Shown: in pieces, positions 39,331 to 59,496 of the stretch | Layout: every line of letters begins with the position of its first letter | Numbering within the stretch: position 1 is the stretch's first letter | From: a virus | Taxonomy: Duplodnaviria > Caudoviricetes | Length of the DNA: 64,000 nt | Virus record (IMG/VR): IMGVR_UViG_3300029305_003178 | Span: 128,001 to 192,000 of that record | Reading direction: 5' to 3' (one strand) | Notes under the pieces: model-generated | The model's database searches: none | Seen by the model: the letters and a program-made list of their open reading frames with translations, nothing else | What the model was told of the DNA's origin: nothing | Program-made: the position numbers and the translations under genes

Positions 39331-40953
39331 TTATACTAATATAGTTTTCAGTAATTGTTTTACTCCCACTATAGTAGATTTTGGAATATCGATAATTTTT
39401 TTATCAAATTTATTTTTAACATAGTAATCAGTAAAGTCAAAATCTTTTTCTACTGATTGTAATTTTTTGAGATATGTCTTAAAATCATTCATGGCGAAGG
39501 CCCTTGCTTTAATAACCTCAGGATCCTTTTCCTTAAACCTCTTATCTCTTTCAATCACTCCTATTAATGTAAATGCAAATGCGAGATTAGTCTTCACTCC
39601 TTCATAGTTTTTATTTTTCCAATTTTCTACAAGAAGTTTATGATTTTGACTATATTCGTCCATATATGATTGTTTCGGAGAGATTGAAATTTTAACATTA
39701 CCATCCTCATCTACAGAAAATCCTTCTTTAATAGATCTAATAGTATCTGTTAATAAATTATTTGTAATACTCTTAGCGTTAAATGTAATAGTTTTAATAT
39801 CAAACTTAGTATCAGATAAAATACCAGAGAAATAATCTTCCAATGATTCATCTATTTTAACAAGTTTGACATTACTTTCTGTAACACCAAGTAAATATGT
39901 AGAACCATCTTTTCTATCGGTTGCAATATAAACGGATTGTCCATTTATATCATTTGCTTCTCTAACACTTTCTATAGAATTAATATTCTCAAATTTAAAA
40001 ATATCTGTTTTATTTAAATTTGTGAAATTAATATTATTTTTATTTGTCCATGATTCTAATCTAGACAAATCTATTACAGGTACACCTCCATTTCTATTGT
40101 TATGTGTATCTATAATATATATTTCATTTTCAATTCGATCTTTTGCTGTTTGTTTTGTATATTCCATAAAAGATTCTAATTTATATTTATCAGCAACTTT
40201 TAAATATGATTCTAAAGTATTAGTAGCTATATGTCTATCCATAATATAATCAGGTCTATTTGATTTATATTTTCTATTAATAGTGCTTTCTAATAAGCTA
40301 TCATGGTTAAGCTCTTCTAATATTTTAGAACCTTCAAAAGAATCATAAGATTCTACTATGGAATCTGTAAATGCTAATAATATATCAAATTCATATGATG
40401 ACTCATTTAAAGTATTATTTTCATAATCTTTATAATATCCATATGATCTAATTTGTGCATCGGTAATATTATTAATATAGTCTATAGCCATATCACGTTC
40501 AGCACAATCACATTTAAGCAATTGCTGTATTGCTTTATGACATTCCATCTGAAGTTTATTGATTGGATCAACATTATCAAAATTCTTATCTATAAATACT
40601 ATCTTTCTAACATTTCTAACATTTTCACTAATAACAGATCTACATTCAGGGCAATATATAGATAAATCCGTACGAATAATAGATTCCTTAACTGTAGACT
40701 TATTAACGTATTTATAGAATGGGTTATCTTCAGATACATTAACAGTCATATCAAATTCTTTTATTTTTTTATTTATATTATTTGCCAATTCAGCTCTATC
40801 TTTTTGAGGACAGAACTTAAAAAACTGAATGGCTTTTCTAACATGCTCTTCATCATTTAAAGGATATTTTTTCTGTGATGGTAAACCAAATTTTACATCA
40901 CTCATATTTCTACGATCCTTGGCAGAAAGTTTCTTTTCAAATATAATATCCAT
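39331..40953 (-). CDS. Late virion-associated protein with N-terminal DUF6582-like domain
   Basis: KLSAKDRRNMSDVKFGLPSQKKYPLNDEEHVRKAIQFF; many xxES motifs; late motif at 40984-40995. Confidence 0.55.
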   Translation of the reverse strand: MDIIFEKKLSAKDRRNMSDVKFGLPSQKKYPLNDEEHVRKAIQFFKFCPQKDRAELANNINKKIKEFDMTVNVSEDNPFYKYVNKSTVKESIIRTDLSIYCPECRSVISENVRNVRKIVFIDKNFDNVDPINKLQMECHKAIQQLLKCDCAERDMAIDYINNITDAQIRSYGYYKDYENNTLNESSYEFDILLAFTDSIVESYDSFEGSKILEELNHDSLLESTINRKYKSNRPDYIMDRHIATNTLESYLKVADKYKLESFMEYTKQTAKDRIENEIYIIDTHNNRNGGVPVIDLSRLESWTNKNNINFTNLNKTDIFKFENINSIESVREANDINGQSVYIATDRKDGSTYLLGVTESNVKLVKIDESLEDYFSGILSDTKFDIKTITFNAKSITNNLLTDTIRSIKEGFSVDEDGNVKISISPKQSYMDEYSQNHKLLVENWKNKNYEGVKTNLAFAFTLIGVIERDKRFKEKDPEVIKARAFAMNDFKTYLKKLQSVEKDFDFTDYYVKNKFDKKIIDIPKSTIVGVKQLLKTILV

Positions 40954-41052
40954 TAACCTTCACACCTTTCTATACTTATTGATTACCTAAATGTTGAATA
41001 TAGGATTTAATATAAAAAGTATTAATAACTAATTTTACACAAACAACTATTT

Positions 41053-41270
41053 AAGAAAATTAATACCTAATATTGGATATTACGGAAATACTTCTTTCAG
41101 CATTGCGCGCCTCAATAGCTATTTATTATGTTGATTTTCATACTAAATGCCAACAACCTGTAGCTGAATTCTACACCTCCAATAATTTACAGTTGATATA
41201 AAATATCCAGTGTGGACATATTAGGTATTTTTTCTTATATAATCCCTATGCCTATTTTGGCATAGGGATT
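41053..41270 (+). ncRNA. Candidate late structured RNA (rod-like, ~170-220 nt)
   Basis: Late motif AACAactattTA at 41042-41053; no ORF; nested stems 41062-73/41218-29, 41074-81/41202-09, 41096-101/41163-68, 41129-33/41151-55; terminator hairpin at 41241-41270. Confidence 0.55.
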
Positions 41271-41272
41271 TT

Positions 41273-41304
41273 CGTTTTTTAAATATTTTTCAATTATATA
41301 TTAT
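41273..41304 (+). promoter_or_regulatory. Putative early promoter
   Basis: CGTTTTTT...TATATATTAT (41295-41304). Confidence 0.6.
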
Positions 41305-41355
41305 TATTGTGTAATTAACATATAATATATCTTAACATCAAGGAGGGAAATTACA

Positions 41356-42588
41356 ATGAGTAGAAGACGTGATGAAATTATTAACAAGATCGATAGACGT
41401 AAAAGACTACGTTATATCAAGTATGCTGACGGGTATGAAGTATTGATTAAATATGACACTGAATTTAATAAACTTGAGTCTATTAATAGCAAAGGTCAGC
41501 TTCGTTTATTTCAAAATGATTATATACCCACATTATCAATGGATGACCTTATCAAAGGTAGGGAACTGAATGGTAGACCTATTGATAATACTAAAGAAGA
41601 ATGCAAATATGACCACAATGGTAATATCATTTATTTCTCCAATGGTGAGGGGTTTTGGTATAAATCTATCTACGATGATAATAAAAATGAGATTATGTAT
41701 GAAGATAGTAATGATAAATTAGTAATTCGCACATTCGATTCTAATAATAATTTAATTGAAGAGATTGCTGCATCTAGTAAAGATGTTAGTAAAATTTTTG
41801 ATCTATATATTAGTAAATTAACAAATGCTATCAATAAACTTCATCTCATGACTGATAATGTAGCAGATTATTTGATTAGTAAGTATGTCGATGAGGCAGA
41901 TATTAAAAAAGAGATCGTTAGTGGCCGTATGAGTATCGAAGATGTTATGAATACAAAATTCACCATTGAAGTTACAGAATATATCGGTGATATAAATAAT
42001 AATAATGAATATGATAGAGCATTAAGAAAAATTACTGTTAATCACTCAAATATTGAAAAAGAGATTAAAAGTTTATATATTGAAGAAATCAATGAGGCAG
42101 TAAAAATTTATTGTAAAGCAAATCATGAAAATAGAAATAATATTAGTGATTTAGCTTGTTCAATTGAAATCGCATTAGCTTTAATTAATCGCGATTTGAT
42201 TGACTATCTTATCGCACGTGGGTATTGCAAACAAAACTCCCATATTTATAAAAATTTGAATATTGATGAGGTATATAATTTTATAAGTCATAATGAAAAT
42301 TTAGATACTGATTTCATGTATATGTCTATTCTCAGAAATATGGTCGCATGTGCTATAAACTGGCACATTACCAACGACAATATCAATAATATCTATTCTA
42401 AACGTGGTGTCGTACAAACAATGCTACACACATTAAACTTCGCAGCATGTGAAATTCGTTCATTCACAATAGTGGATAAAGAGTTAAGAGAAAGATTTGA
42501 ATCTGGTAACGATGATGTAGATACAGACATGAATAATACGTCTATCAATTATCCATTCGACTACAATCCTTTTGATATAAACAAATAA
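41356..42588 (+). CDS. Early hypothetical protein with N-terminal YD-like repeats
   Basis: KYDHNGNIIYFSNGEGFW / YDDNKNEIMYEDSN / FDSNNNLIEE; AGGAGG RBS. Confidence 0.7.
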   Translation: MSRRRDEIINKIDRRKRLRYIKYADGYEVLIKYDTEFNKLESINSKGQLRLFQNDYIPTLSMDDLIKGRELNGRPIDNTKEECKYDHNGNIIYFSNGEGFWYKSIYDDNKNEIMYEDSNDKLVIRTFDSNNNLIEEIAASSKDVSKIFDLYISKLTNAINKLHLMTDNVADYLISKYVDEADIKKEIVSGRMSIEDVMNTKFTIEVTEYIGDINNNNEYDRALRKITVNHSNIEKEIKSLYIEEINEAVKIYCKANHENRNNISDLACSIEIALALINRDLIDYLIARGYCKQNSHIYKNLNIDEVYNFISHNENLDTDFMYMSILRNMVACAINWHITNDNINNIYSKRGVVQTMLHTLNFAACEIRSFTIVDKELRERFESGNDDVDTDMNNTSINYPFDYNPFDINK

Positions 42589-42683: not shown

Positions 42684-43676
42684 TTGAAATCTGATGTAAA
42701 TAGATTTGAACGAGGTCAAATCTGGGTATATGACGATCATAAAGACAAGAAAGATAAAAAAACATGTATGGCTGAAAAGGGTATTCTTATAGGACATAGA
42801 CCAGTATTAATAATGTCTGTCCGAGATAAATATATTACAGTCATTAAAGGTAGTCGTCGTAGAAAAATCGAAAAAGCACAGGTAGAATATAATGATGGTA
42901 CAGGAATTGGTATTTTTGATACTCTCCAGATGGAAGTATTAAATACTGAAACAGCTGATTTAACATATACGGCTAAAATTGAAAATTCCATACTTAAAGA
43001 AATCAATAATACAATTAATACTTGGCTATTCGACTATATAGATGATTACACTTCTAGAGGAACTTCAACCTATTTAAAAAGACAAGTTTGGGAATTCAAT
43101 GATAATGGATTTACAAAAACTGCAATTATTGTACATAGATTCAAAAGATCTGTAATATTAATTCCATTATCTAAAAATCAACATTTAGAAACTGATTATA
43201 AATTTGAATTACATACGGATACGATATATACTGATATATCATCTATACGTACAGTATCGACAGATCAACTGCATAGATATTGCTTTACAATATCTGAGGA
43301 GATATATTCATCTATATTAAATGAAACCAATGCTTATCTCCATGGTGAATCTAAACATATTCCATCTAAAGAACCAGAAAAACCAGTTCATAAAAAACGT
43401 GGTGGTAAAAAACATAGAGGTGGAGCGAAACATAGACACAAAAAGAAAAATTTAAATCATATTGATATTCCAGAGGTTGATGTACCTAGTGTAGAAGTAG
43501 ATGCAAAAAATATTAAAACTTACTGCCCAAAGGCATTTAAACATCTATCATTTAGTGATTTAGTAGATGAGTTTAAAACACACACATCAAAAGAATTAAG
43601 TACAAAATACAAAGTTTCTGGTTCAACGATCCGTCGTACAAAAGCGTATATAAAAGAAATGAATGAGAGTAAATAA
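42684..43676 (+). CDS. Tandem PemK/MazF-like domains plus basic linker and C-terminal HTH
   Basis: Domain 1 FERGQIW...GHRPVLIMS; domain 2 KRQVWEF..TAIIV..VILIPLS...DISSIRTVSTDQL; HTH TSKELSTKYKVSGSTIRR. Confidence 0.65.
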   Translation: MKSDVNRFERGQIWVYDDHKDKKDKKTCMAEKGILIGHRPVLIMSVRDKYITVIKGSRRRKIEKAQVEYNDGTGIGIFDTLQMEVLNTETADLTYTAKIENSILKEINNTINTWLFDYIDDYTSRGTSTYLKRQVWEFNDNGFTKTAIIVHRFKRSVILIPLSKNQHLETDYKFELHTDTIYTDISSIRTVSTDQLHRYCFTISEEIYSSILNETNAYLHGESKHIPSKEPEKPVHKKRGGKKHRGGAKHRHKKKNLNHIDIPEVDVPSVEVDAKNIKTYCPKAFKHLSFSDLVDEFKTHTSKELSTKYKVSGSTIRRTKAYIKEMNESK

Positions 43677-59140: not shown

Positions 59141-59410
59141 TTAGATAGAAATTGTGAATCCCATTGGTGCAGGAATCGTTGTTCCTGGAATGACTTTAAT
59201 AACATCTTCCTGATTACCAGAACCAATGATTTCAGTTGCATCAACATAATTATCATCGAAAAATGTTTCAAATGCATCAGAAGTTTCTTTCTTCTTGGAT
59301 TCTTTCTTTTTCATTTTCTTCTCATACTTTTCAATTTTCTTATCGATATGCTTAAATACTTTATCGATATTAAAATTATTTGGGTTAATATCCATATTAC
59401 TCACCTCCAA
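59141..59410 (-). CDS. Small hypothetical protein (start probably ATG 59395)
   Basis: GGAGGTGA RBS at ~59401-59408. Confidence 0.65.
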   Translation of the reverse strand: MEVSNMDINPNNFNIDKVFKHIDKKIEKYEKKMKKKESKKKETSDAFETFFDDNYVDATEIIGSGNQEDVIKVIPGTTIPAPMGFTISI

Positions 59411-59461: not shown

Positions 59462-59496
59462 GTGAATATGAATAATACGAGATTATTCATATTCAC
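59462..59496 (-). terminator. Terminator downstream of the RNAP beta gene
   Basis: GTGAATATGAATAAT-acgag-ATTATTCATATTCAC, 15-bp stem with T5 on the minus strand. Confidence 0.65.

Follow-up and report, generated by a model that had tools for sequence, protein, structure and literature searches.

Jumbo phages of the AR9 type have their genes transcribed by two polymerases of their own, which use specific early and late motifs; the late consensus reads AACA-(6N)-TA/G, and its final A or G is the transcription start site (TSS) (PMC5312081). Table S3 of the same study maps an abundant late start at position 75478 of AR9 on the minus strand, listed as antisense to g090 (PMC5312081). In the Bacillota, small RNAs (sRNAs) with C-rich seeds have been described (RsaE/RoxS, RNAIII, SprD and LhrC; PMC6158497, PMC5419742, PMC8216469), and in the RsaE/RoxS type a C-rich segment pairs with the G-rich Shine-Dalgarno (SD) regions of target messenger RNAs (mRNAs). 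Here we describe an element in a window of 64,000 nucleotides (nt), bases 128001-192000 of the IMG/VR virus record IMGVR_UViG_3300029305_003178 (227,229 base pairs [bp], 29% G+C), that is probably a lineage-specific late small RNA belonging to no described family and having no homologue in our searches, and whose mechanism we infer from its sequence. The nearest cultured phages by capsid protein are the Bacillus phages AR9 and PBS1 (27% identity), and to judge by these comparisons the source is an uncultured AR9-like jumbo phage. The element sits in a 402-nt gap (40954-41355) that separates two divergent genes, encoding proteins of 540 and 410 amino acids (aa), and its parts are as follows, with positions counted from the first base of the window.

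41042-41053, plus strand: AR9-type late promoter motif AACA-N6-TA, AACAACTATTTA; predicted TSS at its final A, 41053.
41053-41280, plus strand: predicted non-coding RNA (about 225 nt) made up of the rod and the terminator, with no SD-led open reading frame (ORF), no gene remnant and no Rfam family.
41053-41073, plus strand: 5' arm of the predicted closing helix, AAGAAAA (41053-41059), a 2-nt bulge and AATACCTAATAT (41062-41073); its partner is 41218-41236.
41074-41081, plus strand: segment with two predicted partners, UGGAUAUU, pairing either with AAUAUCCA at 41202-41209 (pair probability about 0.22) or with the anti-SD UCCA at 41178-41181 (about 0.46).
41174-41180, plus strand: CACCUCC, identical to the core of the 16S ribosomal RNA 3' tail (the anti-SD), within ACACCTCC at 41173-41180.
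41218-41236, plus strand: 3' arm of the predicted closing helix, ATATTAGGTATT (41218-41229) and then TTTTCTT.
41241-41280, plus strand: intrinsic terminator, a 12-bp stem (6 G-C pairs; 41241-41270) with a 6-nt loop, followed by TTCGTTTTTT.

The best single support for a plus-strand RNA gene is the terminator, which is unique among the divergent gaps of this genome. As an internal control, we folded positions -75 to -5 upstream of the genome's 39 best early promoters. When the upstream gene was co-directional, 15 of 22 early promoters were preceded by a strong hairpin (-13 to -24 kcal/mol), and these hairpins are the terminators of the upstream genes; when the upstream gene was divergent, 16 of 17 had no strong hairpin (-2 to -11.5 kcal/mol; Fisher test for co-directional versus divergent gaps, P value = 8 × 10−5). 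The sole divergent exception was this locus, and its hairpin was the strongest of all 39 (-24.2 kcal/mol). Because this is the only terminator-grade hairpin in a divergent gap, and because its T run is on the plus strand only, it behaves as if a plus-strand gene ended there. The 290 nt upstream of it hold no ORF longer than 45 codons from stop to stop and none with an SD, and no trace was found in the gap of the genes that hold this position in relatives. Since a plus-strand terminator is thus present without an SD-led ORF or a gene remnant, a non-coding RNA gene is the simplest reading, and on this sequence evidence we think it probable that a discrete non-coding RNA is made from the locus. 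A pseudogene was also considered and was rejected, the flanking proteins of the relatives' gaps having left no trace in this one.

The promoter evidence is consistent with a late unit. Across the genome, the motif AACA-N6-T(A/T) clusters sharply 40 to 43 nt upstream of start codons, and it is the AR9 late-promoter consensus; a second motif class, a T-rich stretch followed by ATATATTAT, marks the early promoters of this genome and is similar to the early promoter sequence that PMC5312081 gives for AR9. The only plus-strand late motif in the gap is AACAACTATTTA, with a position weight matrix (PWM) score of 10.2 bits versus a median of 14.7 for gene-proximal late promoters; it ranks in the top 5% of the 533 core motifs found away from promoter positions (core-motif density in the whole genome, 1.27 per kb per strand). 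As a late promoter it is plausible by its sequence and not outstanding. The predicted start coincides with the first base of the closing helix. The locus has the outline of an AR9-type late unit, with a late motif whose last base is the start and an intrinsic terminator at the end, the use of the promoter being predicted. A forward test that collected orphan units running from a late motif to a terminator was underpowered (about 14 units, 3 with CCTCC, one a transfer RNA). The locus had been proposed in a sequence-only reading as a dedicated late phage RNA, and the elements on which that proposal was built held up: the late motif is where it was placed, the roughly 190 nt that follow contain no credible ORF (none SD-led, none longer than 45 codons) and no credible ribosome-binding site, and the 12-bp hairpin with its T run is present at the end.

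We then have the predicted fold. The ends of the RNA would be held together by the 12-bp helix AATACCTAATAT/ATATTAGGTATT, with pair probabilities mostly above 0.8, and by a further 7-bp helix, 41053-41059 with 41230-41236 (0.8 to 1.0), which was absent from the sequence-only reading and lengthens the closing stem. UUCAGC (41096-41101) pairs with GCUGAA (41163-41168) at a probability of 0.8 to 0.92 and closes an inner domain, 41096-41168, and the terminator stem is formed with a probability of about 1.0. All sequences of the nested stems that had been proposed are present; the 12-bp helix and TTCAGC/GCTGAA are supported by the model, whereas the 8-bp helix TGGATATT (41074-41081)/AATATCCA (41202-41209; 0.22) and UGUUG (41129-41133)/CAACA (41151-41155; 0.04) are not favored. 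The 8-bp helix is weak because its UGGA pairs more often (0.45 to 0.48) with the UCCA that ends the anti-SD. In both the minimum free energy and the centroid folds, a terminal clamp surrounds two or three branches, and ACACC lies in an asymmetric junction near the 3' arm. The claim that the anti-SD is exposed is accordingly borne out by the model for one half of it only: ACACC (41173-41177) is more than 90% unpaired in the predicted ensemble, but the UCC is only 11 to 28% unpaired. To open all of the 8-mer would cost 1.8 kcal/mol, the difference between the open and closed states.

The expectation that the interval would fold better than shuffled sequence was borne out with the terminator included (z = -5.61); this value is mostly due to the terminator, since the rod alone reached only z = -2.67, with 2 of 200 shuffles equally good. 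Perfect long-range inverted repeats of at least 12 bp numbered 20 in the genome versus about 14 in shuffled genomes, and 5 of the 20 lie wholly in non-coding DNA, which makes up 11% of the genome (this element, two in a rod at 76.5 kb, and single repeats at 65.6 kb and 40.1 kb). These results indicate that the modeled structure is mildly unusual, and that this is real, but folding energy alone would not carry the case.

A further argument concerns the anti-SD motif. The element's CACCTCC is not the ribosome-binding site (RBS) of any minus-strand ORF, and its chance of occurring in an RNA of this length is about 0.2% by the control rate. Only two non-coding, non-RBS copies exist in this genome, each reading TACACCTCC, one here and one in the rod at 76446-76647 of the same genome. 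We assessed the recurrence of the design in five genomes (this one, G000, and the relatives G001, G003, G005 and G006), using 41 permuted 7-mers as controls. The number of CACCTCC copies was not clearly raised (5 versus a control mean of 3.0). A late motif lay 10 to 180 nt upstream on the same strand of all five non-RBS, non-coding copies (24 of 124 controls), and four of the five (instances in G000, G001 and G006) had both the late motif and an enclosing perfect stem of at least 10 bp, compared with 2 of 124 controls (P value = 7 × 10−6). We refer to such units as late, stem-enclosed anti-SD RNAs, a provisional class defined in this analysis and not in the literature; the present element has all three of its features, namely a non-RBS, non-coding CACCUCC, a late motif no more than 180 nt upstream, and a perfect stem of at least 10 bp. 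The member in G001, the closest relative (about 95446-95640, plus strand), consists of a late motif, a 13-nt leader, a clamp of 18 to 21 bp with AGUCACCUCCUUAUAG in the loop (also written UCACCUCCUUAUAG), a 4-nt spacer, and a strong terminator; it is antisense within a run of minus-strand genes and, by its flanking genes, stands at a different locus from ours. Taken together, these sequence comparisons are suggestive of a late-motif, stem-enclosed CACCUCC design within the closer clade, one that is not established more widely.

Our best explanation of the whole, to which we hold tentatively, is a stand-alone late non-coding unit that acts in trans as a base-pairing anti-SD RNA. The phage non-virion RNA polymerase would start at about 41053 from the AR9-type late promoter and would stop at the intrinsic terminator at about 41278, yielding an RNA of about 225 nt whose ends would be clamped by a 19-bp interrupted helix. 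In its 3' half, CACCUCC would switch between a free and a half-paired state and would pair with GGAGG(UG) SD sites of phage early or host mRNAs, which would then be translated less as infection reaches its late phase; speculatively, exposure of the motif could be gated by the UGGA segment, for which there are two alternative UCCA partners. The sequence analysis supports the anatomy and the terminated plus-strand unit, and from it we infer the late timing, the exact 5' end, the exposure of the motif, and its pairing with mRNAs. Given the chance of about 0.2% and the recurring design, RBS targeting appears plausible as a reading, although that the RNA works through its anti-SD motif is, as a claim by itself, rather doubtful.

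The best-matching initiation region was that of an 84-aa gene starting at window position 59394, where UAUUGGAGGUG would give 11 contiguous pairs (-18.4 kcal/mol); by inspection, the anti-SD matches the SD of the adjacent 410-aa gene by 5 bp only. The 84-aa gene itself (window 59141-59394, minus strand) is unannotated and lies between a 1375-aa gene and the next gene. Its initiation region reads UAUUGGAGGUGAGUAAUAUG, and upstream of it there is a 15-bp hairpin (59462-59496) as well as a promoter core of the early type.

Several observations weigh against this anti-SD explanation. With respect to targets, neither a genome-wide duplex scan nor a scan of all initiation regions gave an outstanding one, the match to the 84-aa gene was no better than chance among SD-bearing sites, and early-promoter genes were not better matched than late genes. 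With respect to the fold, half of the anti-SD motif is paired in 45 to 75% of the predicted ensemble, the minus strand folds better than the plus strand (z = -3.43), and an equally good plus-strand fold is found in 18% of G+C-matched 190-nt windows (sliding-window background, the first 96 kb of the genome), so that the folding claim for the rod itself stands only in part. With respect to the motif, non-coding DNA showed no enrichment of the 5-mer CCTCC relative to its permutations (63 versus 49 to 61). The class comparison (4 of 5) includes the two discovery cases, and the relatives alone gave 2 of 3 versus 2 of 124 (P value = 0.002); late motif and stem were found together at none of five CACCTCC copies in three more distant relatives (G007, G008 and G009), and the seven relatives pooled gave 2 of 8 versus 9 of 244 (P value = 0.04). 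With respect to conservation, the syntenic gap in seven relatives measures 13 to 122 nt or holds other genes, and the element is in none of them. Finally, no search returned a homologue with which conservation or covariation could be assessed, and a neighboring gene is an orphan as well.

Two of the searches had been proposed as checks by the sequence-only reading, and neither turned in its favor: Rfam assigned no family, and the syntenic intergenic regions of the seven relatives lacked the element. The Rfam search of 40800-41500 at an E value of ≤10 gave 8 weak matches, none of them 6S RNA and with no sRNA family near its gathering score, and the whole window had no match at the gathering threshold. 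The gap and a surrounding stretch of 4 kb had no DNA match among 50,697 phage records, blastn against the two nearest relatives, taken as whole records, returned chance words only, and looking in IMG/VR for exact 18-mers and 20-mers gave five matches, all by chance and in unrelated coding DNA. A single-sequence covariance model of the rod found nothing else in its own genome, the rod at 76.6 kb included, and nothing in five relatives. Nor was the rod at 76.6 kb itself seen behind the corresponding tiny gene in G001, G003, G004/G005 or G006. In the closest relatives by capsid protein (74 to 80% identity), the homologue of the 540-aa protein is only 36 to 46% identical, and a protein search with the 540-aa neighbor gave nothing above 37% full-length identity; the 410-aa neighbor had no homologue among 5.8 billion proteins. 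To the left of the gap, an endolysin-like gene and the 540-aa gene are syntenic with G001; the synteny stops at the gap. Identical flanking proteins were found only on two other short JGI contigs (3300032167 and 3300029705), in which the 402-nt gap is kept. As far as these comparisons reach, the element is lineage specific and located at a synteny breakpoint.

The neighboring features bear on the alternatives and are listed here.

39331-40953, minus strand: DUF6582 gene, 540 aa, left neighbor of the gap.
40984-40995, minus strand: predicted late promoter of the divergent 540-aa DUF6582 gene, AACATTTAGGTA, 42 nt upstream of the ATG, PWM score 16.8.
41274-41318, plus strand: predicted early promoter of the 410-aa gene, core ATATATTAT at 41296-41304; right boundary of the RNA unit.
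41356-42588, plus strand: orphan gene, 410 aa, right neighbor of the gap.

The late promoter of the 540-aa gene stands back to back with that of the RNA, and the two predicted transcripts do not overlap. The early promoter of the 410-aa gene scores 30.7, inside the group of true promoters, with this site held out of training. A leftward early promoter was considered and rejected, as the minus-strand ATATATTAT core at 41330 scores -13.6, which is chance level. Two genes downstream of the RNA, a 330-aa protein (window 42684-43676, plus strand) looks like two MazF/PemK-like growth-inhibitor domains (RGQIWVYDD...GHRPVLIMS, with a second copy at about residue 140), after which come a basic linker and, at the C terminus, a helix-turn-helix; its PHROG match to MazF-like proteins is weak (E value = 5 × 10−4), and no antitoxin is evident. 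The layout of a ToxI-like type III toxin-antitoxin locus was not found, as the unit shows no tandem repeats when its sequence is read and matched only itself in a search; the next gene has its own early promoter, and the MazF-like gene is two genes away.

The evidence for a transcription unit would serve equally well a real late non-coding RNA that acts by its shape or through a protein partner instead of through CCUCC, for example as a decoy or sponge for a protein or nuclease, as an RNase III substrate or, least likely, as a 6S-like decoy of the polymerase. The clamp and branched core are the best-supported feature of the RNA, and its anti-SD is half sequestered with no specific target emerging, all of which suits such a role. 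No partner protein is indicated, however, since the adjacent orphan early gene has its own promoter, and the recurrence of CACCUCC in late, stem-enclosed units argues that the motif matters. The 6S-like form of the idea, which the sequence-only reading had raised, fails on two counts, as no Rfam family matched at an E value of ≤10, 6S RNA included, and a branched fold is predicted instead of a rod opened by a central bubble; the packaging role that it had also raised found no support. We regard action by shape or partner as unlikely. About equally unlikely is the account of a functionless recombination scar at the synteny breakpoint, made up of spacer, a leftover terminator, and a chance late motif, repeats and CACCTCC, which at most keeps stray rightward transcription out of the early orphan gene. 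Conserved synteny stops exactly here, the genes to the right are orphans, and every relative examined lacks the element; moreover, the folding energy of the rod is ordinary for this genome, shuffled genomes produce their own perfect 12-bp long-range inverted repeats, and the late core motif is frequent. Against chance stands the joint occurrence, within 240 nt, of a late motif in the top 5%, a clamp that begins at +1, a motif with a chance of 0.2%, and the only terminator in a divergent gap, together with the over-representation of long-range perfect repeats in non-coding DNA and the failure to find a gene remnant in the gap.

The remaining accounts are of lower probability. Late transcripts from 41053 might partly read through into the 410-aa gene, the start of which is only 75 nt downstream of the unit, so that the structure would be a cis-acting leader tuning read-through or translation and giving the gene a second, late mode, as in the genes of AR9 termed continuously expressed. 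This is improbable: the terminator is very strong (12 bp, pair probability of about 1.0), inspection found no competing pairing of its arms (at most 5 bp), the anti-SD matches the SD region of that gene by a mere 5 bp, and a leader of about 300 nt would be unlike the 40- to 43-nt leaders of other late genes. The element might also act as DNA rather than RNA, in double-stranded or cruciform form, whether as an inverted repeat to which a protein binds, as a site of recombination, as an origin-like site, or as a miniature transposon. This would agree with its lineage-specific place at a breakpoint and with the fact that both strands fold about equally well, as inverted repeats should; but there is no second copy in the genome and none in the viral collections, no flanking direct repeat was seen in the sequence, and the strand-specific T run and the late motif would be left unexplained, which makes it very improbable. 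We give least credence of all to an antisense RNA of about 325 nt made by the host polymerase, which would cover the RBS and 5' leader of the 540-aa late gene before it reached the same terminator. It would start from a sigma-70-like promoter, TTGGCA-17-TATAAT (window 40919-40947, plus strand), that lies within the first codons of the 540-aa gene and is directed into the gap. The match is 11 of 12, and sites of this grade number only 19 over the two strands of the 227-kb genome; most of the 19, however, are inside genes and look like chance, and AR9-type phages use two polymerases of their own (PMC5312081), with both early and late motif classes in use here.

In the course of the work, we noted other loci with related sequences. 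In G006 (200640-200740, minus strand), a 15-bp hairpin with the loop ACACCUCCUUACGAAUAUAUAAUAUAU stands 35 nt after AACA-N6-TT, between two genes on the opposite strand, and the other strand carries GGAGGUGU. Outside the window, at 65614-65810 of the source genome, a divergent gap contains what appears to be a third clamped RNA with a strong terminator: a closing stem of at least 15 bp (GTAAACTTATAATAC/GTATTATAAGTTTAT) surrounds about 105 nt with UUCUCCCCUU and GUUCUCCAAG, and behind it come a 17-bp terminator and a T run. No clean late or early motif lies upstream of it, AACATCGTAGAT having the wrong spacing. At 225570-225625 of the same genome, a palindromic hairpin, TACCTCCTTTACA...TGTAAAGGAGGTA, directly precedes the ATG of a gene at 225645 and would be an SD-sequestering leader stem; its syntenic counterpart in G001 is the gene next to the element described above. 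In G008 (228330-228460, plus strand), a G+C-richer, structured-looking non-coding stretch (gggctcaagtgagtgggtgaaaatccc...) surrounds CACCTCC and may be an intron or an RNA gene. Lastly, CCTCC(C)ATTTCCAC recurs in non-coding DNA (G001, 55466; G003, 113248, 147939 and 84155) and may be a regulatory box or a repeated leader.

To our knowledge, the regulation of translation by phage-encoded sRNAs is barely explored, and we know of no function for any non-coding RNA of an AR9-type phage. If late anti-SD RNAs do mask RBSs, they would constitute an RNA-based early-to-late or host shut-off switch at the level of translation, beside the two-polymerase switch of transcription. A wider version of this idea, which we think unlikely as it stands, would have AR9-like gut jumbo phages repeatedly evolving, de novo and at different loci, small late RNAs in which a copy of the 16S tail is clamped inside a long helix and which mask strong SD sites, shifting translation away from early or host messages; the present element would be a young, breakpoint-born member in which UGGA gates the exposure of the motif. 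The locus offers a clean test case, with one promoter, one RNA, one terminator and no overlapping gene. Its value is limited by its being unique to one uncultured phage, and the class would be better tested in AR9, where the abundant late start of a CCUCC-bearing RNA is mapped. Overall, what the sequence-only reading observed is partly confirmed, and what it made of the observation is partly supported.

Compared with known RNAs, the element shares its length and paired ends with 6S RNA (Rfam RF00013 and related families); it differs from it in matching no model and in having a branched core without the large central bubble that mimics an open promoter, and nothing suggests that it binds the polymerase. 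The C-rich-seed sRNAs of the Bacillota are likewise stand-alone units with their own promoter and intrinsic terminator, and the size range, 100 to 250 nt, is similar; the pairing predicted here for CACCUCC is likened to that of their C-rich segment. There is, however, no homology of sequence or structure and no Rfam match at an E value of ≤10. Moreover, this RNA would be phage encoded and started from a late motif of a phage polymerase, whereas they have a sigma-A promoter; it carries one CACCUCC in a long terminal clamp and not several UCCC loops, and none of its possible targets stands out, whereas theirs are defined.

There are likenesses, too, to other units of AR9-like phages. The rod at 76446-76647 and the G001 element share with ours a late motif and a long perfect clamp (18 bp and 18 to 21 bp, respectively), and each carries, apically or toward its 3' end, (U)ACACCUCC or UCACCUCC that is predicted to be unpaired, in ours for the ACACC half; both units of the source genome begin with AACAAC, and the G001 element also shares the 4-nt spacer and the strong terminator after it. 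They are not detectably homologous to it by the covariance model, stand at other loci and have other inner folds, and the rod at 76.6 kb copies 12 nt of the 16S tail (CACCUCCUUUCU), whereas this element copies 7. In AR9 itself, the sequence at the 75478 start reads AACATATTAATA, and the RNA begins with AAUGUCCUCCUG and continues into a 15-bp hairpin and a U-rich tail. The opposite strand at this place (KU878088.1, 75401-75538, in the gap between g090 and g091) reads GGAGGACATTATTAATATG and opens an unannotated 21-codon ORF, and the late antisense RNA starts opposite it; the CCUCC of AR9 could thus simply be the complement of the RBS of this tiny plus-strand ORF. The AR9 transcript is much shorter than the RNA described here, carries CCUCC at its 5' end, is unclamped, and has no function shown in the paper. 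Like it, however, it is a CCUCC-bearing late RNA with a hairpin in an intergenic gap of an AR9-type phage, and its mapped start shows that such late units are transcribed in a phage of this type.

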